A stretch of 64,000 nucleotides of DNA from Candidatus Moraniibacteriota bacterium (lineage in GTDB: Bacteria > Patescibacteriota > Minisyncoccia > Moranbacterales > GWC2-37-73): assembly GCA_035390125.1 (NCBI GenBank), contig DAOOTD010000002.1, positions 41,908-105,907 of the forward strand, written 5' to 3'. This document shows, piece after piece, positions 41,229-58,249 of this stretch; the first letter of the stretch is position 1, and the number at the start of each line of letters is the position of its first letter. The notes beneath the pieces were generated by a model. That model was given only the letters and a program-made list of their open reading frames with translations, did no database searches and was not told where the DNA came from. A program made the position numbers and the translations under genes.

Positions 41229-41300
41229 GCGGGTATCGTATAGTGGCTATTATACGTCCTTGCCAAGGATGAGACGGCAGTTCGATTCTGCTTACCCGCT
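41229..41300 (+). tRNA. tRNA-Gly (anticodon GCC)
   Basis: Anticodon stem-loop cgtcc-ttGCCaa-ggatg. The 3' end overlaps the stop of the recombinase gene. Confidence 0.85.
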
Positions 41301-42899
41301 CAGAAGTTCAAAAACGGCCTTAGATTGGGCTGTTTTTGTTTTATCTAAGGCAAAATTAGTCAGTTCTAACCTTGGACATTCTGCCTTTATGGTTTCCAAT
41401 CCTTTTTCAATGAGTTGGTATTGTTTTCTTAGTGTGATATCTAGCACGCCATCCTTGAGGGTGAAATCTGATCCCAAAGCCCGTAAAATGTTGGTTTTCT
41501 CGGTATAATCACCAACATTAAAATTATGTTTTGCATATACCGCAAACTTGAATGTTTTTTCGGTCAGTTCTAACCATTCATCGGCTCGCTGGTTTATGTC
41601 ATCTAAAGATTGTTGAATCTTGTCTTTTTCTTTCAGTAGGGTCGCTTTTCTTTCCTTGAATTCGTCATCGCCAATTAAATCCTTGTTGGCATTTTCGGGT
41701 GAGATGTAGATATCTAACAACTTATCAATCCTATCTTGGCATTTCTTCAATGCTTTTTGTTGGTTTTCAATCATTATGTTCCTATTATCAACTTCGAGTT
41801 CGTTATCTCGCCTTAAGATTTTCAAAGCATAATCCAAAAAACTTTTAGGTATAGTGATTTTATCCAACTTATCTGCAATCTGCTTGTTGATGTCGTTGTA
41901 GGTAATGGATTTTTGTTTGCAATTAACATTCAACTTCTTTCTAGTGCAGTTATGATAGATGAATGTTCGGACAACATTTTCGGTTTTTATATGCTTCAGT
42001 TTTAGTTGGGTAGTAATATGACATCCGCACTCACCGCAACGGATAGTTCCTCGATAGGGAAGAATTTTATGTTTTGTTTGTGGCTTAGTTTTATTTCCCA
42101 AAAGTCCTTGAACATAATCAAATTCAGCTTCGGTTATCATCGGTGTGTGATTTCCTTCATAAACCTTACCAGTCCATTCATATTTTCCACAATAAAAAGG
42201 ATTGGTAAAAATATCGTATCCATGGCTAGCGTGCAGTTTTATTTCTTGCCCCTTGCACATTCTTCGCAAACCCCATTCATTGTTGGCAATCTCGATAATT
42301 TTTGAAACAGAATAGTCGCCAGTTAACATCAAGTCCCACATCTTACGAACAATGGGGAATTTTACTTCATCTACAAAAATCTGTTTTTTACCTTGGTCTG
42401 TTCCTTTGTCATTTTTATATCCTATCGGTGCACGACCAGGTCTCCAGCCTTGCTCTGCCTTATTCAACAGTCCTCGTCGGACATCTTTTCCTAAATCAAT
42501 AACATATTGGTTCGCCATTCCAAATTCAACACTCATCATTATCACATTGTCTACGGTTTTGTATTCTCTGCCGACTGTTTGGATGGACTGGATGAGTCCT
42601 TGTTGAAGCAACCACATTATCTCACCACCATCAACGGGATTTCTTGCTAGACGATTTAACTTCCAGCATATAATTCCATCTGCCTTGCCTTGTTTAATAG
42701 CAGACAGCATTTTGTTGAATTGTTCCCGACCTGGCTTTTTCGCTGATTTGCTCTCTTGAAAAACACCGACAATTTTAACATCGAGATGGCGTGCTAATTT
42801 TTCCAGTTCTTTTTTCTGGCTTTCAATAGATTGCGTTTGACGATCTTCCGCTTCGGTACTTTTGCGAAGATACATCAGATATTTTTGTTTTGTTTCCAT
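41292..42899 (-). CDS. large serine recombinase (phage-integrase type)
   Basis: N-terminal resolvase catalytic domain (YLRKSTEAEDRQTQSIESQ with the nucleophilic Ser), recombinase domain, zinc-ribbon CGECGCH...C and a C-terminal coiled-coil. The stop overlaps the tRNA-Gly 3' end. Confidence 0.85.
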   Translation of the reverse strand: METKQKYLMYLRKSTEAEDRQTQSIESQKKELEKLARHLDVKIVGVFQESKSAKKPGREQFNKMLSAIKQGKADGIICWKLNRLARNPVDGGEIMWLLQQGLIQSIQTVGREYKTVDNVIMMSVEFGMANQYVIDLGKDVRRGLLNKAEQGWRPGRAPIGYKNDKGTDQGKKQIFVDEVKFPIVRKMWDLMLTGDYSVSKIIEIANNEWGLRRMCKGQEIKLHASHGYDIFTNPFYCGKYEWTGKVYEGNHTPMITEAEFDYVQGLLGNKTKPQTKHKILPYRGTIRCGECGCHITTQLKLKHIKTENVVRTFIYHNCTRKKLNVNCKQKSITYNDINKQIADKLDKITIPKSFLDYALKILRRDNELEVDNRNIMIENQQKALKKCQDRIDKLLDIYISPENANKDLIGDDEFKERKATLLKEKDKIQQSLDDINQRADEWLELTEKTFKFAVYAKHNFNVGDYTEKTNILRALGSDFTLKDGVLDITLRKQYQLIEKGLETIKAECPRLELTNFALDKTKTAQSKAVFELLSG

Positions 42900-43221: not shown

Positions 43222-43263
43222 TTTACTATAGTAAGGAGGAGAATTATCCTTACTATAGTAAGG
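43222..43263. promoter_or_regulatory. two tandem copies of the palindrome CCTTACTATAGTAAGG
   Basis: ttactatagtaagg-aggagaattat-ccttactatagtaagg, in the 150-bp gap upstream of the integrase operon. Confidence 0.5.
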
Positions 43264-43266
43264 TTA

Positions 43267-43575: not shown

Positions 43576-43592
43576 AATTTTCGGTAATTTTG

Positions 43593-43808: not shown

Positions 43809-44043
43809 AAAATTAAAATTTAATAATTAGACACACACCCCGATTTTTCAGTGGGAGAACGACATTTTGGGGAATTTTTCATAAAATATTCTTTAAATTA
43901 TTTTTTATTTTTTCATTATATTTAACCCACTATTTGATAAAGAATTAGTGGGTTGCTAGTGGTTTAAAAAAACAAAAAAAGACTTTTAATAAAGTCTTTT
44001 GATACAACTAAAGAAGTTTTAAGTTTAGGTATAAACCACTCTT

Positions 44044-44844: not shown

Positions 44845-44924
44845 ATATTTATTATTGATATTTTCTCACTAGATAGGCTTAAAAGCAAGATAAATGTTTA
44901 CTTTTAGCCATTTTTATATTACAT

Positions 44925-45078
44925 TGTAAGTGGTACCATACTCATATAGACACTGAGAGTAATCTCAGTAATTTTGCTTCATCACGCCTTTAAGCGGGCG
45001 GCTCGGCGCACATGATGGGGCATTTCGGTGTCTTTTGAGTGTGGTACCCGTCGGGTCGTCCACTCAAGCGGAACTTCT
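44925..45078 (+). ncRNA. GC-rich structured element; candidate ncRNA or cis-acting site
   Basis: A 13-bp long-range helix (GGTACCATACTCA at 44928 pairs with TGAGTGTGGTACC at 45035) encloses local hairpins. GC is about 50 percent versus about 28 percent around it. Ends at a strong terminator. Confidence 0.3.
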
Positions 45079-45112
45079 CGACGACTTAATTATTAAGTCG
45101 TTTTTTGTTTTT
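45079..45112 (+). terminator. rho-independent terminator
   Basis: acgacttaattattaagtcgt followed by T6. Confidence 0.75.
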
Positions 45113-45138
45113 AAAAAACAAATTACACAATAAAAAAT

Positions 45139-45489
45139 ATGGGTGTAATTGAATCAATCGGAGCTAACCGAGCAAGAATCATTTTCGATGATTTTTGTGT
45201 TAGATTATTTTTAAAATATAAAGGAAACTATTGCTCTGATGTTAGAATATGGAAATTATCAAAATCCAATATACTTTTTGGCATGTTTAATAGTAAAAAT
45301 TTATACTGGGCTGTTTGTGATGAGGCGGCCAATTCTTTACACGGTTGGTTTTATAAAGAAGGCGATCTACTTAAGTCATTGGCGCATAGAATAGAGCAAT
45401 GCTCTAATGAGAATGAACTGAAAAGATTGTGTCTTAATCTGGAAAATATAATTGAAAAAGGAATTCCATTAGATATAGGAGAATTTTAA
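45139..45489 (+). CDS. hypothetical protein
   Basis: 116-aa ORF, Cys-containing, no motif recognised. Confidence 0.45.
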   Translation: MGVIESIGANRARIIFDDFCVRLFLKYKGNYCSDVRIWKLSKSNILFGMFNSKNLYWAVCDEAANSLHGWFYKEGDLLKSLAHRIEQCSNENELKRLCLNLENIIEKGIPLDIGEF

Positions 45490-45490
45490 T

Positions 45491-45700
45491 ATGGAAAATA
45501 AAAAACATCGTCTCCAATCAAATTTCGAATTTATTGCTGAAACATCCTTGCGAGTAGTGCGAGCGTTTTCATATTTCTTTATGGTTGCGATACCCCTTTT
45601 GAATTATAAAGATCTGCGATTTTCAATTAAAACTATCTTGATTTGCTTGAGTTTGGTTTTTATTTCTAATAGACTACTTGGCAAAATTAGAAGCAAATAA
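45491..45700 (+). CDS. hypothetical small membrane protein
   Basis: 69 aa with one or two hydrophobic helices. Start is 2 nt after the previous stop. Confidence 0.35.
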   Translation: MENKKHRLQSNFEFIAETSLRVVRAFSYFFMVAIPLLNYKDLRFSIKTILICLSLVFISNRLLGKIRSK

Positions 45701-46130
45701 GGTTTTATCTAAAACGAATAATCGTGTTTGGTCGCGGATTCTAGCTATGCAAGATATAACAAAAAACGACCCTCTCTTTTTTGCGAAGGTCTTTTTTTAT
45801 TCCTCTTTTGTCACCAAAACACTCTCTTTTGGCTTTAAATAGCCAAAGATATAAAGTTATATGGCTGACCAGCCAAGACATCCTCTAGGGATGAAATAAA
45901 GCCTCCAGGGGCAGTGAGAGTGTCTCGCCAAATGGGCTTTTTGGCTAAAATAAGGCAAAGATTTCTTAATTAAACGATAAAAGGTTTTAAATAGCGGAAA
46001 TTATCGTGTTTGGTCGATTAATTTGTGTAGTATGATAACTGTTTAAAGAATTAATTATTATATAAGTTTATGGGTTAAAAAGCTATATATTGGCATAAGG
46101 CAATTTAAGTGATAAGCTAAAAATACAAAT

Positions 46131-47045
46131 ATGGCATTATTTAGCATACAAGGCGAGAAAACTAAAAAGATTTTATCTAAAAGCTTAGATTTAGAAAAAA
46201 AACTTCAAAAATTATTCGAGAATAATCTTGAAGACGTTTTGAATATCACTTTTTTAGCCCATGAATATTCCACAAGTTTTGGCGGAAGAATTGATACATT
46301 GGGAATAGATAAAAACGGATCTCCCGCAATAATAGAATATAAAAAGAACCAAAATGATAATGTAATTAATCAAGGACTCTCCTATTTGCGATGGCTTTTA
46401 GATCATAAGGCTGATTTTGAAATATTATGCAGAAATAATAAAGTTGCAGTTGAAATTGATTGGGATTCGCCAAGGGTTATCTGTATAGCAGAAAACTATA
46501 ATAAATTTGATATTGACACTGCGGATATTTTGCCTATAAATATTGAATTGCTAAGATATAGGATCTATGAAAACGATATTTTATCTCTAGACATAGAAAA
46601 TTATCAAAAAGTAAGAATTTCAACTTCTGGCATATTAAAGAAAGCAAGAAATCAAAAAGAGAAGCAGAATGTTCTTCAGAAAAATTATTTATTAGAAGAT
46701 CATCTGAAAAATGCGCAAAAGGAAATAAAATTACTTTTTTATAAGTTGCGAGAAAAGATCACAGCACTTGATGAAAATATTATTGAAGAGGCTAAGGCAA
46801 AGTATATCGCCTATAAAACTTCAACTAATTTTGTTGATATTGTGGTGCTTGGCAATAGTTTAAAAATATTTTTAAATGTGAAAAGTGGAAAACTTATTGA
46901 TAAAAATTCAATAGCCAGAGACTTAACTAAGCCAAAATCCGTTGGTCATTGGGGGAATGGTGATTATGAGGTAAAATTGCAAAGCGAAAATGATTTAGAA
47001 AAAGTTTTTGACCTAATAAAACAAAGTTATGGTTATAATAAATAA
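46131..47045 (+). CDS. PD-(D/E)xK nuclease-fold protein (NucS/DUF91-like core) with C-terminal extension
   Basis: GRIDTLGIDKNGSPAIIEYKKN...NVINQGLSYLRWL carries the D...D...ExK...Q..Y signature. Overlaps the downstream gene by 17 nt. Confidence 0.6.
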   Translation: MALFSIQGEKTKKILSKSLDLEKKLQKLFENNLEDVLNITFLAHEYSTSFGGRIDTLGIDKNGSPAIIEYKKNQNDNVINQGLSYLRWLLDHKADFEILCRNNKVAVEIDWDSPRVICIAENYNKFDIDTADILPINIELLRYRIYENDILSLDIENYQKVRISTSGILKKARNQKEKQNVLQKNYLLEDHLKNAQKEIKLLFYKLREKITALDENIIEEAKAKYIAYKTSTNFVDIVVLGNSLKIFLNVKSGKLIDKNSIARDLTKPKSVGHWGNGDYEVKLQSENDLEKVFDLIKQSYGYNK

Positions 47046-48348
47046 AACTATGTACCAAGTAAAAATACCTAAGATATTATTTTTAGCACTAGGGACAGCA
47101 AGATTTTATTATAAAGGTTATTATAATACAAATGATCTCGCTGGAATTGCAAATAAATATGCCGAACATCTCGTTCGTTTAAGATCAGACAAAAAAGATT
47201 ATAAGTATTTGGATGATACTAATTTTGGTGGATTAAGAGGAAATTTTTCAACACTTCTTACGTGGAAAGGGTTTGTTAAAAGGGGAAATGCCATAGTAAG
47301 TAGATATTATATTGGCAGGGATAAAAGATTGGCTAATGCAGTATGTAATGGTGAAATTATACTAAATGAGAGTAATATGACTGCGTATACTACAAATGAA
47401 AAATTAAAAGAACTTTTAGAATTAGAAGCATGGCTTTTCACCGTAAAGGAAACACAGGCACATATAAAAGTTATGTTAGGAAAAGATAAGAGCATACCTC
47501 TTTCTAGAGATAACGATAATTTCAAAAAAGTATCTGTCGTAAGGAGTGCAAATGGTCAATATTTTATAAGATCGTTAGTTAACAATTTTATTGATTCAAA
47601 AAATAAAGTTCTGGAGTACAGTATAGTTAATTTTTGGGAAGGAAAAAAGTTAAAGAAGAAAAATCTTCATCCATTAATAGTTATTCCTACGAAAGATACT
47701 CCTTGGAGTAAAATATTTGCAATAAAAATGGAAGATTTGATTGATAATAAACCTTTGACATTATTGGTTGATTTAGAAAAAGAAATTTGTTTTGATACGG
47801 ACAATAATAAATACAAGCTATATTCTCTAAGGGAAGCCGTTGACGAATTTACAACTGGAGATGAAAATATACCTCAAAGGCTTTCATATTCCTGGGAAAA
47901 AATAAAAGAGGCTCACTGTGATAAAGAAGCTGATTTTTCTGAAATCAAAGAAGATGAATTTATAATTTTTCTAGAGAAATTCCTCAAGTGGCAAAAAGAA
48001 TTTGAAGTTGGAGAAAAGAAAGTTGTGGGTGTAAATGTATCGAGCTCTGGTGGTCCCGATGTTCACTTAACATTTTCGGGTGGCACAGCCCAAAAATTAG
48101 AACTTGAACATAACTGGAAAAGCTACTTAGATCACAGGCATCACGAAAGTAATGCATGGGTAGATACATGGCTTTTTGCAGAAGAAGAATGGAATCCTAA
48201 AAGAATATTAAGTTTATACAAGACACATAGAAAAACCAATGGTCAAAGAATTCCTAATGTATTTTTATGTTTAGAAAGAGGAGAACGCAAGTGCTATGAA
48301 GCAAATTGGGATGAAGAAACATTTACAGAAATACCTTTAAAATTTTAG
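47029..48348 (+). CDS. hypothetical 439-aa protein, candidate second endonuclease subunit / specificity partner
   Basis: No family recognised. Possible D...ExK-like patch (PTKD...LLVDLEKE). Start overlaps the PD-(D/E)xK gene and the 3' end overlaps the convergent methyltransferase by 12 nt. Confidence 0.45.
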   Translation: MVIINKTMYQVKIPKILFLALGTARFYYKGYYNTNDLAGIANKYAEHLVRLRSDKKDYKYLDDTNFGGLRGNFSTLLTWKGFVKRGNAIVSRYYIGRDKRLANAVCNGEIILNESNMTAYTTNEKLKELLELEAWLFTVKETQAHIKVMLGKDKSIPLSRDNDNFKKVSVVRSANGQYFIRSLVNNFIDSKNKVLEYSIVNFWEGKKLKKKNLHPLIVIPTKDTPWSKIFAIKMEDLIDNKPLTLLVDLEKEICFDTDNNKYKLYSLREAVDEFTTGDENIPQRLSYSWEKIKEAHCDKEADFSEIKEDEFIIFLEKFLKWQKEFEVGEKKVVGVNVSSSGGPDVHLTFSGGTAQKLELEHNWKSYLDHRHHESNAWVDTWLFAEEEWNPKRILSLYKTHRKTNGQRIPNVFLCLERGERKCYEANWDEETFTEIPLKF

Positions 48349-49128
48349 TTTACTTAATTGATTTTTATTTTTTAACACAACTATTTTCGAGGTTGTGTTA
48401 TTTTTTTTCGCTCGATTTTTCATTATTTCAAAATATTCATTGTCATTCTCTATACTTATACTGTTCCTTTTTAATTGATCCGCTGAAGATTGAAGCGTTC
48501 CACTGCCGGCAAAACAATCTAAAACCCAGTCATTTTCATTAGTAAATATTTTTAGTAAGTGCTCTAAAACCTTGGCTGGTTTTTGAGTGGGATGTTTCGT
48601 TCTTTCATTGCCCATGCATATCGGAGTTTCTACAAAATCAGCCTTGATGTGATTATGCATTTCATTTTGCTTTGTAAAATTGAAAGTATAATCTATTTTT
48701 TTTTCATTAAATCCTTTCGTTGCCCATAAAATTGCCTCACATGAAGATAAAAAACCTGTTTTTCTAATTTGGGGGGCTGGATTAGTTTTGTGCCAAATAA
48801 TAGTAGCATGGTGTTTAAAATCATGCTTTTCATATATTCTTTTTATATCACTAATATATTCTAATTTGCTAAAAATTAACAAATTTCCAGATTCTTTAAC
48901 TTTATTTTTTGTATTCTTTATCCATTTATCAGTAAATAATAGATATTCATCATCAGAAAAATAATCCCACTTTCCAAAATCTGATGATCTAGCCTTTCTT
49001 CCTTTTAATATCTTGGTATTTTTATTAGCAGTATTGTAAGGAGGATCAACAATTACGGCATCGAATTTTTTATTGATTTTTGGCAAAATATCCAAAGCAT
49101 CTCCGAATATTAAATAATGTGAATTCAT
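48337..49128 (-). CDS. DNA methyltransferase, beta-class amino-MTase (N6A or N4C)
   Basis: Motif IV DPPY (AVIVDPPYNT) precedes motif I FxGxG (LDCFAGSGTL). Confidence 0.85.
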   Translation of the reverse strand: MNSHYLIFGDALDILPKINKKFDAVIVDPPYNTANKNTKILKGRKARSSDFGKWDYFSDDEYLLFTDKWIKNTKNKVKESGNLLIFSKLEYISDIKRIYEKHDFKHHATIIWHKTNPAPQIRKTGFLSSCEAILWATKGFNEKKIDYTFNFTKQNEMHNHIKADFVETPICMGNERTKHPTQKPAKVLEHLLKIFTNENDWVLDCFAGSGTLQSSADQLKRNSISIENDNEYFEIMKNRAKKNNTTSKIVVLKNKNQLSKLKF

Positions 49129-49133
49129 AAAGT

Positions 49134-49898
49134 TTATTTTTTTAGTCGTTTAAGTGAATCAATATAATAACCCTTGTCAACTTCAGAACCTATAAAATTT
49201 CTTTTTAATCTTTTCGCCACAACCGCAGTAGTCCCTGAACCCATAAAAGGATCGAATATAATATCATTTTCATTTGAAGTTGCTAGTATTATTTTCTCTA
49301 AAAGCCATTCTGGTTTTTGTGTAGGATGTATTTTTTTTCCTCCCGCAGTTTTTCCTCTTGTCAAAACAGCTTCTCCATACCACATGCACCTCATTTGCTT
49401 TCCGTGATTAATCTTTTTCATCTCACCATAATTAAATGTATTTTTTTTAGTTTTTCTTGCCCATATGAAATTTTCATGATCAGCTACAAATCTCGTACAA
49501 GACAAATTTGGTGTAGCATCAGATTTGTGCCATATTATTTCATTTAAAGGCTCAAGCCCTATTTTTTTTAATAAGTATCCTGTTAAATAAATATTATGAT
49601 AAGTTCCTGCAACCCATATTGCTCCTTCATTTTTTAATATTCTATAACATTCTTGTAGCCATTTCTTTGTAAATTCTTCGAATTCAATATCTCCAAAATT
49701 ATCCCAATGCCCTTTATTTGTGCTTAAATCAGAACCGCCAGATTTTATGAATTTTATCTTAAAATTGCTTTTGCTTAGGTTATAGGGAGGATCTGCAAAT
49801 ATCAAGTCAATAGAGTTGCTTTTAATTTTTTTCATTAATTTTAAGCAATCTTCATTGTAGATTTTATTTATTTTCAGTTTTTTATCTGTAAAAATCAT
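49134..49898 (-). CDS. DNA methyltransferase, beta-class amino-MTase (N6A or N4C), second copy
   Basis: IFADPPYNL then FDPFMGSGTTAVVA. Lies 5 nt upstream of the other MTase. Confidence 0.85.
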   Translation of the reverse strand: MIFTDKKLKINKIYNEDCLKLMKKIKSNSIDLIFADPPYNLSKSNFKIKFIKSGGSDLSTNKGHWDNFGDIEFEEFTKKWLQECYRILKNEGAIWVAGTYHNIYLTGYLLKKIGLEPLNEIIWHKSDATPNLSCTRFVADHENFIWARKTKKNTFNYGEMKKINHGKQMRCMWYGEAVLTRGKTAGGKKIHPTQKPEWLLEKIILATSNENDIIFDPFMGSGTTAVVAKRLKRNFIGSEVDKGYYIDSLKRLKK

Positions 49899-50198
49899 CC
49901 TTATTTTTTAATTTATAGATTATAGGTTAATTATAACCTTAAAAGAGAGAAAAATACACCCCCAGGGCAATTTATTAAAAATATGCGAATTCTGTGTTTA
50001 AAATGTACCTAAATTGCTTTGACAAAGCACTTATTCCATGCTATAGTTTTTTCTAAAGACGAGGCATAGCTTTAAAGCTTTTAGGTATATCTCGATCGCT
50101 CTTATCTGAGTAGCGGCATTGGAACGGGCCGTGAAGAACGGTATAAGAAGAAAGTGGTCGAGCCTTCTTGTGTAATTAAGACATAATAAGAGAGCCAT

Positions 50199-50408
50199 AT
50201 GCCAAAGAAGCAAGATGCTTCTGGTATGCGAGGATATCGAACTCGAAACGAAGATGGAGAATTGCGCGATAAGCGTGATGATACCCACATTGGGACCATT
50301 GAGAAGCAGTACGATATAGATCTCGAAGTCAGAAGTGATATGCACTTAGGAACATATCTTAAGGAGCATAAAATAAAATCCCTTAACGACCTAATTAATG
50401 GTCAATAA
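50199..50408 (+). CDS. hypothetical small charged protein
   Basis: 69-aa ORF after a GC-rich leader. Flanked by a 14-bp inverted repeat (50059 / 50426). Confidence 0.3.
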   Translation: MPKKQDASGMRGYRTRNEDGELRDKRDDTHIGTIEKQYDIDLEVRSDMHLGTYLKEHKIKSLNDLINGQ

Positions 50409-50465
50409 GAGATTTTAGAACAAGAAGCTATTGCCTCGTCTTTATTTTACCATAAAATAGAGCAA

Positions 50466-51368
50466 TTGTTATCCACAACAAATATGTCTGATGGTGAAGA
50501 ACTTAAAATCTATATAGACGGATCTGCTATAACAAATCCAGGAAAATTAGTTGGATGTGCGGGAATAGTTTGCTATCCAGAATTCCTTAATATCCCAAAC
50601 AAAGAGCTCAGATGGTCCTACTCATTGGGGTCAATTGGCAGCATGGAACTTCTGGCTTTGATAAATGCTTTAAAGTGGATTAACAAAAATGTAGCACATC
50701 TTCTTGAAAATTCTATAAGTTCAATATTAATCCTAAGTGATTCTGACTACATTGTTAGTTCGGCCAATTCATGGGTCTATAAATGGAGCAATCCATGGAA
50801 TAAAAATAAATGGAAAAAATCTGATGGTGGTACGGTTAAACACGAGAAATTATGGAAAGAATTTCTAAAAGAACGTAAAAAAACACGGATCAATTTCAAT
50901 ATTACAATTGAATGGATTGAAGGCAAGAGTACCCAAGAGACGAAAAGTGTCGATAAGGCAGCAAAAAGATCAGCAAGAAGTCTGGTGAAAAAGCCGAATT
51001 TTGAACAAATGCCTTATAAACAAGGGCGATCTTTACTGGGAAAAAAATCAAAATTAGAGTTATTTCTTGAAGTTGGAGAAACACACTTAATAAGAGTTTA
51101 CTCTCATTGTTTAGTCAGTAGAAAAAAAGATGCCGAATGTGAAGTTAGATTTGAGGTGATTAAAGACAAAAGCATCGAAGGAAGATTTAAAGCTTTCACA
51201 TCTCAGAAAATAGGTATTAGCAATATTGATAGGGGGCATTATTATTATGCGACTTTTGCTGACAATAAAATATTGCCGTGGATTGATAAAATAGAAGAAA
51301 TTGAAGAAAAAGAGGTTGAAATTATTAAGAAAAAGGCAAAGACCATAATAAAAGCGAAAACTAGTTAA
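50466..51368 (+). CDS. RNase H (type 1) domain protein with about 130-aa C-terminal extension
   Basis: DEDD-type pattern: IYIDGSA..., SMELLALINAL, ILSDSDYIV, KSVDKAAKRSA. Alternative start at 50484. Confidence 0.65.
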   Translation: MLSTTNMSDGEELKIYIDGSAITNPGKLVGCAGIVCYPEFLNIPNKELRWSYSLGSIGSMELLALINALKWINKNVAHLLENSISSILILSDSDYIVSSANSWVYKWSNPWNKNKWKKSDGGTVKHEKLWKEFLKERKKTRINFNITIEWIEGKSTQETKSVDKAAKRSARSLVKKPNFEQMPYKQGRSLLGKKSKLELFLEVGETHLIRVYSHCLVSRKKDAECEVRFEVIKDKSIEGRFKAFTSQKIGISNIDRGHYYYATFADNKILPWIDKIEEIEEKEVEIIKKKAKTIIKAKTS

Positions 51369-51439
51369 GATAAAGCACCTTGTAGGGTTGATTCAATTGT
51401 ATTAGGATATTAATATGTTTAGACAATATTTTTTACCAT

Positions 51440-51522
51440 AAATCCAGTTCTAACCGTATTAACTAGCCCGCTCAGGTATAAATTTACGGCTTTGTTAAGC
51501 CGTATTTTTGTTGTGGTATAAT
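51440..51522 (+). promoter_or_regulatory. cassette module A: 19-nt boundary motif + palindromic operator ACGGCTTTGTTAAGCCGT + extended -10 TGGTATAAT
   Basis: Operator 51486-51503, TATAAT 51517-51522. Same module recurs at 52209, 53200, 55932 and 57671. Confidence 0.7.
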
Positions 51523-51547
51523 AGAAATATAAAATTAAAATAAAAAA

Positions 51548-52171
51548 ATGCTAAACATTGATTCTGCAAATAAATTAAATCCAAAAGCTATATATTTATT
51601 TGCACTTAGATCATTTATCGCTTGGAGCTTACTAATGCTTGTTGTCGTCGGTCTTACAATATTTGTTATAAACATTTTTAATCAGAAAGAAATTATCTTA
51701 TCATCTAGCACAAAAGTTGGAGTTGGAATTCTAAATGAATACGACTATAGCAAAGCATTTCTTTTATTAATTTGGTTATTGCCAACAATAATTTTGTCTA
51801 TCCTTAGTTCGCTAATTTGGGGATTTCTAGTCTGGAAAAATTATACTTTTGAAATAACCGAAAATTCGATAAATATCAACTATGGAATTATAAAAAAAAC
51901 AAAAGATGTGATTTTTTATTTGGATATTGAAAAAATTGAATCTGAAAAACTAATAGCAGAAACATTAACAGGATTGGTAGCTCTAACTTTCTATTGTTCT
52001 GAAAATAAAACAAGCTCATTTCATAAAATAGTAAGAAATAGAATTATGCAAGCAACTTATTCAAGTGATTTTGTTGATGGCAGATCAATTCCAGGACTTT
52101 CGCCTGAAGAAGCATTAAAATTGAAAGAGACAATCTTGTCGTTCATAGGAAACAAGATAAATAAGAATTAA
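51548..52171 (+). CDS. membrane protein with bacterial PH-like (YdbS/YdbT-type) topology
   Basis: Two N-terminal TM helices then a roughly 120-aa soluble domain. Similar in architecture to bPH_2/DUF304 proteins. Confidence 0.4.
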   Translation: MLNIDSANKLNPKAIYLFALRSFIAWSLLMLVVVGLTIFVINIFNQKEIILSSSTKVGVGILNEYDYSKAFLLLIWLLPTIILSILSSLIWGFLVWKNYTFEITENSININYGIIKKTKDVIFYLDIEKIESEKLIAETLTGLVALTFYCSENKTSSFHKIVRNRIMQATYSSDFVDGRSIPGLSPEEALKLKETILSFIGNKINKN

Positions 52172-52208
52172 CAATGCATTTAAAATTTTAAATAAGGAAT
52201 TCTCCCCT

Positions 52209-52291
52209 AAACTCATTTCGAACATCATCTGCTAATGGGCTCACCTATGAATTTACGGCTTTTTTAAGCCGTATTTTTGTTGTGGTATAAT
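52209..52291 (+). promoter_or_regulatory. cassette module B (operator ACGGCTTTTTTAAGCCGT + TGGTATAAT)
   Basis: Operator 52254-52272, TATAAT 52286-52291. ATG lies 6 nt after the -10, so leaderless geometry. Confidence 0.7.
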
Positions 52292-52297
52292 GAAAAC

Positions 52298-53182
52298 ATG
52301 AATTCTATGAATCCAGAATGGCAAAAGCAAAAGATAGAAAAACAAGAAGCCAAAATTAACATTGGAGATGTTTATTTTAGTGAAGGCTTAAAATCTGTTT
52401 TTGAGAAAGAGGAGTTTGAGAATGAAATACTAAAAATAAATAAGGAAATCGAAAAATACTTGGGAGAGAATAAAAATTCAGCCGTTTACGATTTTAGGAT
52501 ATATGACAACAGAAAAGAATATGAAGAATATTTCAGAACCAATTATCCAGAAAAATCTGATTATATGGAAAATGACATGGTTTTTTATTCTCCAGATGAA
52601 AAACATAATAAAAATGTTATAGCTAAGTTTATGGAGCAAGCGACCTTAGATCCAAATGATTTAAAGATTCGAAAATATCTCGAAAAAGAAAAAATCAAAT
52701 TCGATGAGTTAGAGGCTTTGTCTAAGCAGAATTATAAAAATAATATTTATCCAACAATAGCACATGAATTAACTCATTCTCACCCATTTTTTAAAGGAAT
52801 GGATAATAAATCATCTAGAAGTAAATGGGAACAAGAAATGGTGTGTGTGTTTATTGACCAAAAAATGTGGGAGGAATATGTTCCATCCTATGGCAAAATG
52901 ATAAGAACAAAAGCAAAAGATCAATCTTTAGGTAGAGATTTGTTTGATGAAATCATTAAAGATTTTGAAGAAGGTGATTTTCAGGTTGAAGACTGGGAAA
53001 GGCTTTTTTACAACTTTTTGGAAAACAGACATGGCAAAGAAAAATTAAAAGATTTTTGGAATATTTTGGCCGAACTAAAAGACAAAGCTAATTTTGAACG
53101 ATGCTATGAAAAAATTTTTAGAGAAAATTTGAAAGATGCTATGATTATATTTCAAGAAAGAATAACAACAGATAAAATTTAA
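52298..53182 (+). CDS. HExxH-motif protein (putative zinc metallopeptidase)
   Basis: IAHELTHSHPFF. The track ORF start at 52277 is an artefact that reads through the promoter (TTG TTG TGG TAT AAT). Confidence 0.5.
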   Translation: MNSMNPEWQKQKIEKQEAKINIGDVYFSEGLKSVFEKEEFENEILKINKEIEKYLGENKNSAVYDFRIYDNRKEYEEYFRTNYPEKSDYMENDMVFYSPDEKHNKNVIAKFMEQATLDPNDLKIRKYLEKEKIKFDELEALSKQNYKNNIYPTIAHELTHSHPFFKGMDNKSSRSKWEQEMVCVFIDQKMWEEYVPSYGKMIRTKAKDQSLGRDLFDEIIKDFEEGDFQVEDWERLFYNFLENRHGKEKLKDFWNILAELKDKANFERCYEKIFRENLKDAMIIFQERITTDKI

Positions 53183-53199
53183 ATAAAGCTCTTATTCAC

Positions 53200-53310
53200 A
53201 AACCCAGTTCGAACGTCATCTACTAAGGGGCTCAGTTTTCTAAATTATGGCTTGCTAAAGCCATTTTTTGGTATTAGACATTGACATAATTATTAAAAAT
53301 ATACTATCAT
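53200..53310 (+). promoter_or_regulatory. cassette module C (boundary motif + variant palindrome ATGGCTTGCTAAAGCCAT + TTGACA promoter)
   Basis: Boundary motif 53200-53218, palindrome 53247-53264, consensus -35 TTGACA at 53281. Confidence 0.55.
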
Positions 53311-53388
53311 CAAATATTAGTTTTAGTTCGTTAATATAGATTAATAAATAATTTTACAAAAACAAAAAATATCGAAAGGAGAGAGGAA

Positions 53389-53961
53389 ATGAAATTTAAA
53401 ATACTCTGTATTCACGATACCAAAGGTATCAATTCTAATGAAACAGTAGCAGACTACCACCCGTTAACACTAGTGGATGTCTCAATGCTGATTCACGTGG
53501 CGTATGCCTTTAGAAAAAATGACCAAAAAGTTGCTGACATTCAAGCGCGACTCATTCAGGGGGTTATAGGTATGACCTGTCCATTTCCTGAAAAAGGTGA
53601 AATTAACGAAAGGGCAATAATAATTAAACGATTGTTTATGGAGGCAATGAGAAATAATAAACCCCCAGTTTATTCACAGTTAGCTCTACAACTTTTCGAA
53701 AACATGATGTTTGAAACAGACGCTGATATATTTACGCCAAAGTCTTCAGAAGATGACATGCTTACAAAAAGCATTGAGGAACTCGAATTACCTATTCGTG
53801 CATACAGATTTCTCAAAAGCATCAACATTAATACAATTGGAGAGTTAGTTCAAAAGACAGAAACAGAAATACTTAAGGAAAGAAATGCAGGCCAAAAGAT
53901 ACTTAGCCAAATAAAAGATGCTCTCATTGAGCATGATCTGTATTTCGCCGTAAGAACATAA
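53389..53961 (+). CDS. protein with C-terminal RNA polymerase alpha-subunit CTD-like (helix-hairpin-helix) domain
   Basis: SIEELELPIRAYRFLKSININTIGELVQKTETEILKERNAGQKILSQIKDALIEHDL aligns position-by-position with the bacterial RpoA alpha-CTD (IEELELSVRSANCLK...GELVQRTE.ELLK.PNLGKKSL.EIKD.L). The roughly 120-aa N-terminal domain is unknown. Confidence 0.6.
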   Translation: MKFKILCIHDTKGINSNETVADYHPLTLVDVSMLIHVAYAFRKNDQKVADIQARLIQGVIGMTCPFPEKGEINERAIIIKRLFMEAMRNNKPPVYSQLALQLFENMMFETDADIFTPKSSEDDMLTKSIEELELPIRAYRFLKSININTIGELVQKTETEILKERNAGQKILSQIKDALIEHDLYFAVRT

Positions 53962-54045
53962 AAAAATCCAATTTGATATTAAAAAAAGCCGAAAACCTGG
54001 ATTCAAGTCGTAGGCTTTTTTATTTTAAATAAAACATTTTTTCAT

Positions 54046-54064
54046 AAACCCAGTTCAAACGTCA
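54046..54064 (+). repeat. boundary motif AAACCCAGTTCAAACGTCA (copy D, without operator module)
   Basis: Identical 19-mer directly after the stop of the alpha-CTD-like gene. Downstream promoter differs (TTGACA at 54098 and 54118). Confidence 0.8.
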
Positions 54065-54217
54065 TATACTTAAGTAATTATTTAATAACACTTTAAATTG
54101 ACATTTAGGCTGTGATCTTGACAAATTAGCGCAGAAAGAGGACAATAGAAAACTAATTAGAGGAAAGTTTTTAGTAATTTTAAAACAAGTTCGAAATTCG
54201 AACAGAGAGGTGCAATA

Positions 54218-54613
54218 ATGAAAGAAAAGGTGAAAAATGCATGGTTTTTTGGAAAAGACAGCCCGGAAAAGAACGTTTTGCTTTTGTATTGTATCCTGCT
54301 GCAATTCCATACAAGCGGGTACAAAGACAGAGAGGCTCCCCTGAGAATTCTTAGCAAAAAGGAGCGGAACTTTGTTAATGAGAAAAAAAAGGAGGTCAGA
54401 GAAGATGGTGAAGGAAGAATACCATTCAGATTTTTTCAACTGATAGTGAAAAAAGGAGATGCATTATTGCAAGATGAATGTGTAATGATCCACTTTTGTC
54501 GCTACAAAAACAACTCTTCAATGATTGAGGAACTGAAAAAAGTGGGGAGCAAAAACAACTTCCTGCTGATTAAAAAGAAAAAAAACCTGTTCATATTGAA
54601 ATTCGAAGAATAA
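54218..54613 (+). CDS. hypothetical protein
   Basis: GAGAGG RBS 7 nt upstream of ATG. 131 aa. The overlapping minus-strand ORF 54062-54439 is rejected. Confidence 0.45.
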   Translation: MKEKVKNAWFFGKDSPEKNVLLLYCILLQFHTSGYKDREAPLRILSKKERNFVNEKKKEVREDGEGRIPFRFFQLIVKKGDALLQDECVMIHFCRYKNNSSMIEELKKVGSKNNFLLIKKKKNLFILKFEE

Positions 54614-54626
54614 AGGTTGAAAAAGT

Positions 54627-54678
54627 AGAGCCTCATGAGATAAACACTTTCTCATGAGGCTCTTGTTCTTTGTGTTTT
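54627..54678 (+). terminator. rho-independent terminator (12-bp perfect stem)
   Basis: gagcctcatgag-ataaacacttt-ctcatgaggctc followed by a T-rich run. Confidence 0.7.
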
Positions 54679-54726
54679 ACAATGGTAACATTAGGTAGTA
54701 TTGTAAAAATTAATGACTTAAATCTT

Positions 54727-55812
54727 ATGCCAAGACAAGAAAAATTCGAAACATTTGTGGGCAAAACCTACAAGGAAGGTAGTTTGGAAAAAAGAAAAGA
54801 AATAAGAACTGACTATGAAAATATAGAAGATCAAATAAATTCTTATTATGAAAAGAAAATCACCGCAAAAAATTTAGTTGATAACTTGGGGCTAGTTATT
54901 CTTGGTTCACAAGGTGAGCATGCCAGCACTCAAATTTATGCCTATGAAAATTTGATAAAAACAATTGCTGAAACAGAAAAAGAAGAAGACATAGACATAA
55001 TAGCTGAAGAAATTTTTTATAGCGCAGCAACTGAAAATAATCCAATGAAAAAAGCTTATTTGTTGGGGATATTAAATAATTTTTCTAATCTGGAAAGACT
55101 GGAAGAATTGTTTGGTAAAAAAGATGAAACAAACAATTCAGCAGATGTAAAAATTACAGAAGAAATAAATATAATTCAAAAAATCAGAAAAGCTGCACTA
55201 AGAATAAAAAAAGAAGGGAAAGTTTCCGAACAAGAGGAAGAAGTGTTAAATTATGTCCTAGATAATTTTCCAAGAGATAATAACGAGTGCGAATCCGCTC
55301 GGTTGGTGTCAGCTTATTATAGCAAGGAAAATTATGCGACAAGAATGCCTGCGCTAGGAAAACAAAAATTGCTCGAAGATGAAGTGTGGAAATGTTTAGA
55401 AGGAAACGGAATTCCTCGCTATGTGTATGCTCTTCCGGCGGGATGGCATCCTTCTGGCGAAAAATTAGATGAGGCTGATAGGTTTGGTATTAATTTGACT
55501 CAACAAGCGGCTATTTTCGAAGGAAAAGAAAAAATATTTATTGAATACGACATGAATCCACGATTATCGCGGCTTTATAATAGAAGAATAAAATATTATA
55601 GAGATCAAAAAAATCTCAAGAAAGTTGAAGAACTAGAAAATGCTTTAAAATTGAGGGTGTGGAGAGAAATTGAAAAAGATCCTGAAGCTATGGAAACATT
55701 CCAAAATATTGATAATATAGTTATTATCAAAAAAACAATTCGAGATTACGCAGACGATGTTGATATTAATAATTTAATGGAAAAAGACTTCCGTGATGAT
55801 GCAGTTCGATAA
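54727..55812 (+). CDS. hypothetical protein
   Basis: About 360 aa, Glu/Lys-rich, no motif recognised. Start taken at MPRQEKF just after the terminator. Confidence 0.45.
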   Translation: MPRQEKFETFVGKTYKEGSLEKRKEIRTDYENIEDQINSYYEKKITAKNLVDNLGLVILGSQGEHASTQIYAYENLIKTIAETEKEEDIDIIAEEIFYSAATENNPMKKAYLLGILNNFSNLERLEELFGKKDETNNSADVKITEEINIIQKIRKAALRIKKEGKVSEQEEEVLNYVLDNFPRDNNECESARLVSAYYSKENYATRMPALGKQKLLEDEVWKCLEGNGIPRYVYALPAGWHPSGEKLDEADRFGINLTQQAAIFEGKEKIFIEYDMNPRLSRLYNRRIKYYRDQKNLKKVEELENALKLRVWREIEKDPEAMETFQNIDNIVIIKKTIRDYADDVDINNLMEKDFRDDAVR

Positions 55813-55931
55813 TTAGCTTAATGTTTTAAATCTAAATTCTATTTTTAAATAAAAAACTTCCATTTTGGGAGTTTTTTATTAATATTTATTTATATTTAGA
55901 GCTTCTGAATAAAAGCAGATAGGGCACATTT

Positions 55932-55969
55932 ACTGCTTTGTTAAGCCGTATTTTTTGTTGTGGTATAAT
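55932..55969 (+). promoter_or_regulatory. cassette module E (operator ACTGCTTTGTTAAGCCGT + TGGTATAAT)
   Basis: One-mismatch palindrome 55932-55949, TATAAT 55964-55969. Confidence 0.65.
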
Positions 55970-55993
55970 GAAAAATGTAAATTGATAAATAAT

Positions 55994-56512
55994 ATGGAAA
56001 TCAAAAATAAGCTTCTATTTAAAACTGAAGTAAAAAAGAAAATAGATAGATTTATCAAAGAATTCCCTATATATTTTTTTATAAACATCGTTATTAACAT
56101 TTCTCTCATAGTAATGATATTGGGAAGTGCCTTTTTTGTAGCTTTTAGCCTTGAAATGCTCGGCACCGGAATACATGCATATATAATCTTATTTATTGCT
56201 TTTTTATCTCTCGTTTTCAGAATAACCATAAAAGGCTTTTTTCGAAATATTAAAATTCTGAAAAGCATTCAAGCGGGCGACTATGAATTTGGAATTGAAA
56301 ATCATGAGCTGGATAATGCGATAGAATTTATTGAAGACATGCCGATAAAAAAAGACGAAGTTGAAAAAATGAGAGTAGCTCTTTCTTTTAATAAATTGAT
56401 TGATGTACTTGAGTACGCGCGTATTATAAAATGTAGCAAAGGCTTATATGATGTTGATTTGGTTTTTAAATATAGAGTAGAAAAAGTTATAGAAGATTGT
56501 ATTAAAATGTAA
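55994..56512 (+). CDS. hypothetical membrane protein
   Basis: Three N-terminal TM helices and a cytoplasmic C-domain. The track start 55955 reads through the promoter (the same MLWYNE artefact). Confidence 0.5.
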   Translation: MEIKNKLLFKTEVKKKIDRFIKEFPIYFFINIVINISLIVMILGSAFFVAFSLEMLGTGIHAYIILFIAFLSLVFRITIKGFFRNIKILKSIQAGDYEFGIENHELDNAIEFIEDMPIKKDEVEKMRVALSFNKLIDVLEYARIIKCSKGLYDVDLVFKYRVEKVIEDCIKM

Positions 56513-56534
56513 ATTTGTAAACTAATAGAAAAAC

Positions 56535-56855
56535 ATGATTCCAATAGAATTTCTCAGGCAGTTTCGCGTTGGTGAATATGCAATCTTCGATCTAGCAGTA
56601 TCTTTTCTAGGAATTTATTTATTATCCTCTTTGCTGTCAAAAATGTTTCTTAAAATAAGAATCAATGTTCCTAAACATAACTGGTTGTTTCTAACTTTGC
56701 CAATTGGCATTGTTGCTCATCTGATTTTCGGACATATGACACCCATGACTAAAAATTTCCTGGATATTCATGGTCATTATGTTCTAAAAAGCTTAATTGT
56801 AGGTCTGTTGATTCTTGGTTTGAGGAATATAAAAATAATTAAGAAAAATAAATAA
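56535..56855 (+). CDS. hypothetical small membrane protein
   Basis: 106 aa with three hydrophobic helices. Confidence 0.4.
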   Translation: MIPIEFLRQFRVGEYAIFDLAVSFLGIYLLSSLLSKMFLKIRINVPKHNWLFLTLPIGIVAHLIFGHMTPMTKNFLDIHGHYVLKSLIVGLLILGLRNIKIIKKNK

Positions 56856-56878
56856 TCTTTTTCCGATAGAATATTTTC

Positions 56879-57649
56879 ATGGAAAAAATAATTATCAAAA
56901 ACAGGAAAGATCAAAACGTTGTAGTTTTGTTAGAAAGAGCTGCAAATCAAAAAGGATTGGCATTTGTTATGCATGGACTAGGGGGTTTTAAGGAGCAAGA
57001 ACATATTGAAACATTTGCCGATGCTTTCAAGAAAAAGAACTATACCGTAATTAGATTTGATACAACAAATACAATAGGTGAAAGCGATGGAAACATGGTT
57101 GACGCAACACTTACTAATTATTATGAAGACTTAGAAGATGTGATTGATTGGGCGAGTAAACAAAATCTTTATCAACAACCATTTGTTTTGTGTGGTCATA
57201 GTCTTGGTGCAATATCCTCGGCTTTATATGCTGAAAAATATCCAGAAAAAATAAAAGCTCTCGCTCCTATTTCCACGGTGATTTCCGGAAAGCTAACAGA
57301 AGAAACGCCAAATTTCATGGAAATTGGAAAAGAATGGGAAGAAAAAGGCATAAGAGAATGGGAAAGCAAAAGTCAGCCAGGTTTAGTTAAAAAATTAAAA
57401 TGGTCGCATGTTGAAGACAGAAGGAAATACGATTTGCTTCCAGCGGTTAAAAAATTAAAAATGCCTGTACTTTTAATTGTTGGTGATTTAGACGATACCA
57501 CTCCACTTAATCAACAAGAATTGCTATATAATAGTTTACCCGGGAAGAGAGAGCTCCATATTATAAGGGGCGCAGAACATACTTTTAGAGAAAAAGAGCA
57601 TCTCGATGAAATATATAAAATATTTTTGAGGTGGATTGAAAGTCTATAG
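56879..57649 (+). CDS. alpha/beta-hydrolase fold protein (esterase/lipase-like)
   Basis: Nucleophile elbow GHSLG. Downstream Asp/His in the usual order (VGDLDD..., GAEHTF). Confidence 0.7.
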   Translation: MEKIIIKNRKDQNVVVLLERAANQKGLAFVMHGLGGFKEQEHIETFADAFKKKNYTVIRFDTTNTIGESDGNMVDATLTNYYEDLEDVIDWASKQNLYQQPFVLCGHSLGAISSALYAEKYPEKIKALAPISTVISGKLTEETPNFMEIGKEWEEKGIREWESKSQPGLVKKLKWSHVEDRRKYDLLPAVKKLKMPVLLIVGDLDDTTPLNQQELLYNSLPGKRELHIIRGAEHTFREKEHLDEIYKIFLRWIESL

Positions 57650-57670
57650 TCTAAATGAAGCATTTTCTCT

Positions 57671-57754
57671 AAACCCAGTTCAAACGTCAGATAATAATGG
57701 GCTCAGGTATGAATCTACAGCTTTGTTAAGCTGTATTTTTTGTTGTGATATAAT
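57671..57754 (+). promoter_or_regulatory. cassette module F (boundary motif + operator ACAGCTTTGTTAAGCTGT + TGATATAAT)
   Basis: Motif 57671-57689, perfect palindrome 57717-57734, TATAAT 57749-57754. ATG 6 nt downstream (leaderless geometry). Confidence 0.7.
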
Positions 57755-57760
57755 TTAATT

Positions 57761-58249
57761 ATGAAGAAAAAAACGAAAGAAGCTTTTGATTGGATAATTA
57801 AAATATTCAGAGATAATAATATACCCTTTCAATTATCCGGAGGCCTTGCTGCTAAAATTTATGGTTCGCCAAAAGATTTGTGGGATATTGATTTTGATAT
57901 TCCAGATAGCTGTTTTTCCAAGGTGAGAAATTTAGTTTCCAAATATGTTATATTTGGTCCTAAAAAAACAACCGCCGAAGGTTTTGATTGTATGCTTTTA
58001 AGGCTGAATTATCATGGGCAGCAAATTGATGTGAGCGGAAATTGTATAAAAATTTTTGATAAGGTTAAAAAGAAATGGGTCAAAGATAATACTGACTTTG
58101 AAAGATCAGCCAAAAAAAGAGTGTTCGATAGAATTGTTCCGGTGATATGTCCGGAAGATCTGCTAAAGTATAAAAGCAAACTCTCAAGAAAGGCGGATTC
58201 AATAGACATAAAGGCTTTAAAAAAATATCTATTACAAAAAAATAAATAA
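57761..58249 (+). CDS. minimal nucleotidyltransferase-fold (Pol-beta superfamily) protein
   Basis: hG[GS]-x9-DhD pattern: LSGGLAAKIYGSPKDLWDIDFDI. Confidence 0.5.
   Translation: MKKKTKEAFDWIIKIFRDNNIPFQLSGGLAAKIYGSPKDLWDIDFDIPDSCFSKVRNLVSKYVIFGPKKTTAEGFDCMLLRLNYHGQQIDVSGNCIKIFDKVKKKWVKDNTDFERSAKKRVFDRIVPVICPEDLLKYKSKLSRKADSIDIKALKKYLLQKNK

Follow-up and report, generated by a model that had tools for sequence, protein, structure and literature searches.

Probable tandem accretion of large serine recombinase elements at a tRNA-Gly gene in a Moranbacteria genome

The ssrA-specific genomic islands of Dehalococcoides carry a large serine recombinase (LSR) of ~540 aa, encoded on the reverse strand and adjoining attL (McMurdie et al., 2011; PMC3146451). 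An integration module is lacking in 15 of the 31 islands, and these have been interpreted as cis-mobilisable (PMC3146451). In streptococci, too, site-specific accretion of ICEs (integrative and conjugative elements) and IMEs (integrative and mobilisable elements) with cis-mobilisable elements (CIMEs) has been described, the decayed elements keeping attL and attR by the target gene (PMC5704250). Here we describe a locus of apparently similar origin in a 64-kb stretch of DNA from a Candidatus Moraniibacteriota bacterium (contig DAOOTD010000002.1, positions 41,908 to 105,907; hereafter the window). The window has a low GC content (~33%) and 11 tRNA genes. The locus comprises a tRNA-Gly(GCC) gene, an adjoining 10.2-kb island with an LSR gene and, to its right, an array of accessory genes parted by copies of a short intergenic repeat, which we call the module. 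The original prediction, made from this DNA alone, held that such an array is not a described cassette system. This does not stand, as tandem recombinase-less, att-bounded islands beside an LSR island have been described before (PMC3146451; PMC5704250), the Dehalococcoides islands being, by analogy of layout, the closest.

We consider it probable that the modules are relic att-site junctions of LSR-encoding integrative elements that insert at the 3' ends of tRNA-Gly genes in Patescibacteria (Moranbacteria/Parcubacteria). The left part of a module, ~50 nt that run up to the pentamer GCTCA and include a conserved 19-mer, would be the left arm of attP on the side of the element (P arm), which makes the 19-mer more than the boundary motif of the original prediction. 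The right part would be the arm of the next, older insertion, namely a terminator of the kind that trails tRNA genes, itself a relic of the last LSR codons; the extended -10 promoter that follows it would drive the cassette gene or genes. The array would have grown by successive insertions at tRNA-Gly(GCC), the order of which we infer. Its newest and sole autonomous element would be the 10.2-kb LSR island (41303-51469), with the module copy at 51440 as its attR. The five recombinase-less units to the right would be either deletion remnants or CIME-like units mobilisable in trans, which have since been reshuffled and partly eroded.

The tRNA-Gly(GCC) gene (41229..41301, + strand; ARAGORN and Rfam) provides the putative attB left arm, now forming attL, with the crossover core GCTCA at 41298-41302. 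The LSR gene (41292..42899, - strand; 535 aa; Pfam Resolvase, Recombinase and Zn_ribbon_recom) crosses this core and stops within the tRNA gene, so that the protein ends ..AVFELLSG. More than 2,700 homologs of this LSR were retrieved at E<=1e-20. Eight other loci for which DNA was available show the same contact between the LSR gene and a tRNA-Gly 3' end, with tRNA-Gly(GCC) in seven and tRNA-Gly(TCC) in one; the loci named with an adjoining tRNA-Gly(GCC) are L046, L047, L048, L051, L053, L054, L056 and L058, and in L057 it is tRNA-Gly(TCC). The right end of the island is 84% identical over 67 nt to the end of the L046 island, which aligns to window positions 51409-51474. Because the L046 and other island ends share its motif, the copy at 51440 is, on this sequence comparison, the attR of the 10.2-kb island. 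An LSR gene stands beside an att site in 41303-51469 and in eight related loci and not in the five downstream cassettes, where a Pfam scan of the open reading frames (ORFs) found no recombinase gene. The layout, with recombinase-less units flanked by att-type sites and arranged in tandem beside an autonomous element at a single target gene, is that of tandem accretion.

Set against the Dehalococcoides islands, the locus shares a reverse-strand LSR gene directly beside attL, where a gene for a small stable RNA has its 3' end, tandem downstream islands each bounded by a repeat of the 3' end of that gene, and a conserved motif upstream of the repeat that does not match the RNA gene. The units without a recombinase parallel the roughly one half of the islands there that have no integration module. 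It differs in its target (tRNA-Gly, as opposed to tmRNA) and its host, a bacterium of the candidate phyla radiation (CPR). The shared core is ~5 nt as opposed to 20 bp, the recombinase-less units span 0.8-1.9 kb with one to three genes and a promoter each, and the LSR ORF spans attP. As with the streptococcal ICEs and IMEs, a new element would integrate beside decayed ones to yield tandem arrays; those elements, however, mostly use tyrosine integrases, have longer identity segments and are multi-kb in size, and no conjugation or mobilisation genes were seen here. In the staphylococcal cassette chromosome (SCC) elements, such as SCCmec and composite SCC at orfX, insertion is by Ccr recombinases of the LSR type and takes place where a conserved gene has its 3' end, and the arrays hold cassettes, some without ccr, parted by short repeated integration-site sequences. 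Unlike the present target, that of SCC is a protein-coding gene, and SCC cassettes are much larger. The Ccr recombinases have been compared with DsiB (PMC3146451). Finally, a one-orientation array of mostly single-gene cassettes with a recombination site after each ORF also recalls integrons. The original prediction was right to set these aside: among the scanned ORFs (39.3-63.9 kb) there was no Phage_integrase match and hence no IntI tyrosine recombinase, and inspection of the aligned copies found no attC R''/R' core sites (RYYYAAC...GTTRRRY) at the module ends. A GTTRRRY-like heptamer occurs inside some hairpins only and is unconserved, and RYYYAAC is missing at the left end. In contrast to integrons, the cassettes here appear to have their own promoters, and the site is apparently tRNA-derived and of the LSR type.

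The architecture of the attachment sites emerges from six islands with both ends identified (those of the window, L046, L051, L058, L054 and L057; LSRs 56-79% identical to that of the window). In all six the far end consists of TAAAyCCAGTyCkAAC.., a fixed length, GCTCA and then a terminator. The identity of the P arms tracks that of the LSRs (Pearson r = 0.87; the 15 pairs compared are not mutually independent). The modules are homologous to the island ends; those of the 19-mer type are likely paralogous arms and agree with the six island arms at 16-20 of 34 positions. One octamer (CAGTTCGA or close) recurs in the tRNA T-arm. Its distance from GCTCA is 12 nt in 12 of 12 tRNA-Gly genes scanned and 17 nt in all 12 matching modules or island ends. 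The zinc-ribbon-domain motif of attB half-sites is known to lie 5 bp nearer the centre than in attP (Rutherford et al.; PMC3783163), and the two spacings, to judge from the motif positions, show this same 5-bp attB/attP shift of LSRs. In L051, attL reads GCTCC and attR GCTCA, shrinking the identity shared by the partner sites to GCTC, and the crossover should therefore fall within GCTC. GCTCA, the last bases of tRNA-Gly, would hold the 2-bp crossover, with the TC on which the reconstructed window attP is centred as the candidate dinucleotide. In this attP the outer inverted motifs CCAGTTCTAA and TTAGATTGGG stand ~17-18 bp from that centre. In this reading the LSR would catalyse the recombination at these att sites.

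A second line of evidence comes from the end of the LSR protein. The reconstructed excised form of the LSR has 550 aa and ends SGLVNTVRTGFMVKNIV before its stop, versus 535 aa in the integrated form, for which the tRNA provides the stop codon; its 17-residue tail comes from the P arm read as its reverse complement (51420-51474; LSR end at 41292-41302). A database protein (P0002), also of 550 aa and 88% identical to the LSR, ends SSLVNTVRTGFMGKSFV; its longest contig measures 11,977 nt. As it carries a tail that only an attP junction encodes, it indirectly indicates that the attP form, i.e. that of a free or excised element, exists in nature. When the reverse complement is read in the LSR frame, nearly all modules, including recombinase-less ones elsewhere, encode S-x-L-x-[ND]-[DT]-V-R-T-G-F-.. 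followed by a stop, the 19-mer being DVRTGF read backwards. Third positions are the most variable among these codons, and the synonymous share of differing codons is 21% in the LSR frame versus 7% and 1.6% in the other two frames. By these measures the P arm bears a coding signature. A short peptide starting from an ATG within the reverse complement of the 19-mer had been considered as its source, but such a peptide is not conserved and the signal is the continuation of the LSR frame. In that same frame the right part of the window-type modules reads ..LNKAVxxxLS, resembling the LSR C-terminus ..SKAVFELLS; each internal module thus has the look of a relic attP, in which the last LSR codons span a crossover site. 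Across seven genomes, modules without an LSR have kept the ~36 nt beside the core almost invariant, while the remainder of what once encoded the tail has diverged.

In mycobacteriophage BPs attP lies inside the 3' end of the repressor gene, giving different C-termini in the free and the integrated state (PMC4557955). The tail resembles this in that attP lies within a gene's 3' end and the C-terminus depends on integration; it differs in that the gene in BPs encodes a repressor, alongside a tyrosine integrase, while here it encodes the serine recombinase itself. The literature searched held no report of attP inside a serine recombinase gene, which is not proof that there is none. The LSR tail, present when the element is free and lost upon integration, may act as an integration-dependent switch.

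The repeat family as such is real and far above chance. The 19-mer has three matches in the window at <=3 mismatches against 0.02 expected, the hairpin with its T-run four against 0 expected, and the promoter stretch TTTTGTTGTGGTATAAT seven, four of them module copies, against ~1 expected. All copies lie in one 6.3-kb stretch of the 64-kb window in a single orientation. An alignment of the six intergenic regions recovered one ancestral module of which all are copies, in differing states. The first (51420..51522, +), the putative attR, has its P arm at 51420-51469, core at 51470-51474, a hairpin at 51486-51503 with a T-run, and an extended -10 at 51512-51522. In the second (52187..52291, +) a degenerate P arm (52187-52238) precedes the core (52239-52243), hairpin (52255-52272) and extended -10 (52281-52291). 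The third (53180..53264, +) has an intact P arm (53180-53229), whose reverse complement encodes SPLVDDVRTGFVNKSFI and a stop, followed by the core (53230-53234) and hairpin (53247-53264). It is complete, yet in place of TGTGGTATAAT, which is absent, a TTGACA-type promoter-like site follows at 53281-53310. The fourth (54024..54071, +) retains only the left ~45 nt as a truncated P arm, with an exact 19-mer at 54046-54064. It is fused at ~54072, a breakpoint set against the sister genome L059, to the upstream region of the next block. The fifth (55922..55969, +) comprises merely a degenerate core (GGGCACA), a hairpin with one mismatched pair (55932-55949; ACTGCTT/AAGCCGT) and an extended -10 (55959-55969). 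The sixth (57650..57754, +) has a P arm with an exact 19-mer (57671-57689), core (57701-57705), hairpin (57717-57734) and extended -10 (57746-57754), and a stop codon now interrupts its tail frame. Near-complete modules are thus those at 51440, 52209 and 57671.

The original prediction had put the same ~85-bp module, with 19-mer, conserved segment, palindrome and extended -10, into at least five gaps, each driving one unrelated gene. The repeats exist as predicted but their uniformity does not survive the alignment: copies are fragmentary or degenerate, and the one at 54046 had been missed. The 19-mer is exact only at 57671 and 54046, has one mismatch at 53200 and four to five in each of the copies 52209 and 51440, and is missing from that at 55932. 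The conserved segment GGGCTCAGGTATGAAT is exact at 57699 only, with two to three mismatches at 52237 and 51468. The palindrome with 7-bp arms and 4-nt spacer is found at 51486, 52255, 53247 and 57717 and is imperfect at 55932, and the extended -10 with TGTGGTATAAT follows four copies and not that at 53200. The genes are indeed unrelated accessory genes in a modular layout, but the copy at 55932 precedes three of them.

Beyond the window, a metagenome search for the module found the 19-mer with TTGCA..GGGGCTCA and terminator in several other Patescibacteria metagenome-assembled genomes (MAGs) and metagenome contigs, and at least seven distinct genomes share the 19-mer letter for letter. Its place in other genomes is 1-2 kb downstream of tRNA-Gly(TCC), and there are frequently two or more copies, spaced by 0.6-1.7 kb, all in the orientation of the tRNA and with one to three genes in between. 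In L002 the right half of the window's module (GCTCAGG..hairpin..TGTGGTATAAT) forms the 3' end of a real tRNA-Gly(TCC) gene together with its flank; the fifth window module is homologous to this flank, and a homolog, 78% identical, of the window gene 55994-56512 follows it. In L015 and L007 a 77-nt flank of a real tRNA-Gly(TCC) gene also follows a module. As the same flank follows both, the 19-mer..GGGGCTCA segment stands in for the body of the tRNA. In L015 no recombinase was found beside tRNA-Gly(TCC), the neighbours being FKBP, NUDIX and SOD genes. Scans of viral contigs with both arm types returned chance matches in coding DNA only.

Comparison of gene orders indicates that the array was inserted. 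L051 has a tRNA cluster, the LSR island, attR, ~190 nt, a 3D-domain gene, tRNA-Cys and tRNA-Leu; the window has the same frame plus ~8.5 kb between attR and the 3D-domain gene, which shows the array to be an insertion relative to L051 and bears out the earlier notion of unrelated accessory genes in integrated DNA. The idea of a shuffled set fares equally well. In the sister genome L059, where shared genes are ~78-95% identical in DNA, the cassettes stand in another order, further units (a methyltransferase, an M23 peptidase and others) are present, and modules part genes that adjoin each other in the window. L015 differs from L005 by a block of nucleotidyltransferase, peptidase and module inserted at a junction of the tRNA-end type. 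The same cassettes occur at other positions or at other tRNA-Gly genes in L002, L015 and L059. Content and order thus differ in L059, between L005 and L015, and in L002, with modules near many of the breakpoints.

Several observations weigh against relic attachment sites. None of the LSR-island ends examined was of the exact 19-mer type, and the window's own LSR arm is a different one, agreeing with the module consensus at 20 of 34 positions; an LSR that acted on 19-mer-type sites would have to be postulated. LSRs normally recombine attP with attB only, so that repeated insertion beside a site already filled calls for a relaxed specificity or for the site to be restored. Comparison with L059 places some of the breakpoints off the GCTCA core, e.g. 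that at 54072, which implies that other recombination has also shaped the array. Among the 16 contigs with an identical alpha C-terminal domain (alpha-CTD) protein, one gene order was seen in the places listed (six of the 16, over the stretch covered). Cassette content thus did not vary between strains there, and these six places give no sign of current cassette movement.

Of the competing explanations the one that fares best, although we regard it as unlikely, dispenses with site-specific recombination: the tRNA 3' end and flank would have been duplicated, either locally or through unequal crossing-over, as in the repeats behind E. coli tyrT, and genes later inserted or exchanged as the repeats recombined homologously with each other. 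The breakpoints outside the core fit this. In addition, the promoter stretch is shared beyond any att half-site in four copies, implying common descent or gene conversion, and the window and L059 have unlike P arms at the 'same' hydrolase cassette. However, the left half of the module is not tRNA sequence but an LSR-element arm with a tail-coding end, the cargo genes are unrelated, a protein of the attP-form LSR exists, and an intact LSR island occupies the tRNA-proximal position.

It is less likely still that the stretch from the 19-mer to GGGCTCA is a functional 3'-untranslated region (3'-UTR) RNA element, either a site for a protein or RNase or a small RNA ending at the terminator. Its invariable position between stop codon and terminator on the coding strand would suit such an element, as would the identity of the 19-mer in distinct genomes. 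Against this, the same sequence lies at LSR-island ends at a fixed distance from the tRNA-derived core, and its coding signature is on the opposite strand. A search of the window and seven loci with Rfam 15, at the gathering score and at a permissive E<=5, gave tRNAs and chance matches only. RNAalifold found no consensus structure in the + strand modules, and single folds were no better than those of shuffled sequences. No conserved promoter lies upstream of the 19-mer, which also disposes of an independent small-RNA gene. Two further candidates were discarded: a minus-strand stem TGAGCCC/GGGTTTA (z = -3.5 in one copy) fails in the island-type arms, and the 19-mer as a tRNA T-arm or pseudo-tRNA fold shows no pairing and is not detected by ARAGORN.

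The palindrome was originally predicted to be the operator of one dimeric repressor, overlapping the -35 and co-regulating all the cassette promoters, which we now regard as very improbable. It is true that the 18-bp palindrome is conserved, varies symmetrically in a compensatory manner and, in four copies, has its place just upstream of the -10. Yet a T-run follows it, and a terminator scan, which called 16 sites in the region as opposed to 5.1 expected, called the four module hairpins as intrinsic terminators of the + strand. Over nine homologous hairpin copies 96.8% of the cells are paired, with double changes at three of the seven pairs; two of the copies stay paired only thanks to G.U, which is valid in + strand RNA and has no meaning for a DNA palindrome. 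Homologous modules in other genomes retain a hairpin and T-run with a wholly different stem sequence and loop length, a like hairpin follows real tRNA-Gly genes and occurs within the 3' ends of LSR genes, and the copy at 53200 combines the hairpin with a different promoter. The variation of stem and loop, the T-run and the G.U pairing disfavour a sequence-specific operator, and no cognate repressor of the palindrome was identified. These features show a terminator-like nature and point to an intrinsic (rho-independent) terminator of the kind that trails tRNA-Gly. The last of the alternatives, a dispersed miniature repeat of the REP, MITE or Correia type with terminator and outward promoter, finds some semblance in a short, intergenic, multi-copy unit with hairpin and promoter, but is most improbable given the confinement of all window copies to one stretch and orientation, the location of copies elsewhere downstream of tRNA-Gly genes, and the fact that neither terminal inverted repeats nor target duplications came to light.

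As for the promoter, the original proposal remains plausible: sequences like an extended -10 (TGTGGTATAAT, TGTTATAAT, TATGGTATAAT) stand at the equivalent position in five related loci and would drive the cassette gene or genes. At 52286-52300 and 57749-57763, only 6 nt and no Shine-Dalgarno sequence separate TATAAT from the ATG of a cassette gene, which suggests leaderless mRNAs for the genes at 52298 and 57761. The genes at 53389 and 54218, by contrast, have GGAG-type ribosome-binding sites.

Returning to relic attachment sites, the recombinase-less units may be mobilisable in trans, for which the differing places of the same cassettes in L002, L015 and L059 are indirect evidence. A stronger version holds jointly that (a) the units are maintained, promoter-bearing mini-cassettes with a minimal attP, captured and excised in trans by tRNA-Gly LSRs, and (b) the LSR tail is a built-in switch of stability or directionality; this conjunction we regard as speculative and rather unlikely. 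If true, the mini-cassettes (0.6-1.9 kb) would be a serine-recombinase counterpart of integrons and a main route of gene gain in the ultra-small CPR genomes.

The cassette genes of the window all lie on the + strand. Module 1 is followed by a bPH_2-domain membrane protein (51548..52171; Pfam match) and module 2 by an HExxH protein (52298..53182), recognised from its sequence and from a gene call in L040 and without a Pfam match. Its ATG lies 6 nt past the -10. After module 3 comes the gene with an RNA polymerase alpha C-terminal domain (53389..53961; Pfam E=6e-17), the sole known domain of a 190-aa protein whose N-terminal half is of unknown type and for which a set of 5.8 billion clustered proteins yielded only eight relatives. 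L059 has an additional ORF ahead of it, Cys-rich and of 126 aa. Within an A/T-flanked stem behind this gene, AACCTGGATTCAAGTCGTA (53994-54012) resembles the 19-mer with small indels and may be a second, older arm remnant. Past module 4 lies a two-gene block of unknown function (54218..55812; 131 aa and 376 aa), found elsewhere within the array in L059. A palindrome, GTTCGAAATTCGAAC (54189-54203), stands directly 5' of the ribosome-binding site of its first ORF and is kept in L059 (7259-7273); a related one, ATATCGAAAGGAG, lies ahead of 53389. Module 5 precedes a three-gene block (55994..57649) for membrane proteins of 172 aa and 106 aa and an alpha/beta hydrolase, genes that in L059 and L002 are split by modules or stand at another tRNA-Gly gene. 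Module 6 leads to a putative nucleotidyltransferase (57761..58249), its ATG again 6 nt past the -10, with 48% identity to the first gene after tRNA-Gly(TCC) in L015.

The 10.2-kb island carries a DUF5655 protein, two N6/N4 DNA methylases and an RNase H-domain protein. Related islands have differing cargo, including genes like those of cyclic-oligonucleotide-based antiphage signalling systems (CBASS), Dcm with restriction enzymes, LexA-like proteins and primase-like proteins. Cargo of the defence type lies at L046:416-2249, L047:1-873 and L051:1542-4338 (SMODS with SLATT, SAVED-HNH, Fic, and Dcm with an EcoRV-like enzyme), and some islands have LexA-like or helix-turn-helix plus M78 pairs and a primase-like zinc-ribbon gene. 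This content suggests that the related LSR islands are self-replicating integrative elements spreading defence systems in the CPR; PADLOC, run on the cargo proteins, returned nothing meaningful. Two non-coding stretches of the window island, 44882-45117 and 45816-46035, are 73-83% identical to the L046, L051 and L048 islands despite the other cargo. Both lie between divergent genes and have short direct and inverted repeats, making them candidate regulatory or replication regions of the element.

Further rearranged tRNA sequences were observed in related loci. At L002:7400-7611 a tRNA-Gly(CCC)-like gene seemingly harbours, in its anticodon-loop region, another tRNA-Gly(CCC) gene that is complete; the halves of the interrupted gene are GCGAGCATAGTATAGTGGCAGTACACGACCTTCCCAAG and AAGGTTGGAGCGTGGGTTCGATTCTCATTGCTCGC, and the ends of the insert pair with each other (CCCCGCACT...AGTGCGGGG). 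A GC-rich segment of ~150 nt, with no Rfam match, separates the tRNA-Gly(TCC) terminator from a second partial tRNA 3' end (..GACGCGGAATTCyAACCCTACCCGCTCA) at L005:2171-2361 (-), L010:~150-300 and L015:4540-4690; inverted copies of the tRNA 3' end (GCGGGTAGGGGGAATCGAAC) stand just upstream of -10 boxes.

The idea of a repressor-controlled cassette regulon thus gives way to a largely known mechanism, as the array appears to be a case of tandem accretion at tRNA-Gly that is new in its host phylum, its target and the unusually small size of its units. The CPR/Patescibacteria have tiny genomes, are without genetic tools, and their mobile elements are poorly known. The locus would offer a concrete route by which accessory genes enter such genomes. 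Among the genes seen are methylases of restriction-modification in the window and genes resembling CBASS in its relatives, besides nucleotidyltransferases, peptidases and membrane proteins. The C-terminal tail of the LSR, dependent as it is on integration, is a possible regulatory feature. Moreover, a widespread recombinase family with a small, defined and conserved target, the last bases of tRNA-Gly, is a candidate tool for CPR genetics or as an orthogonal integrase.

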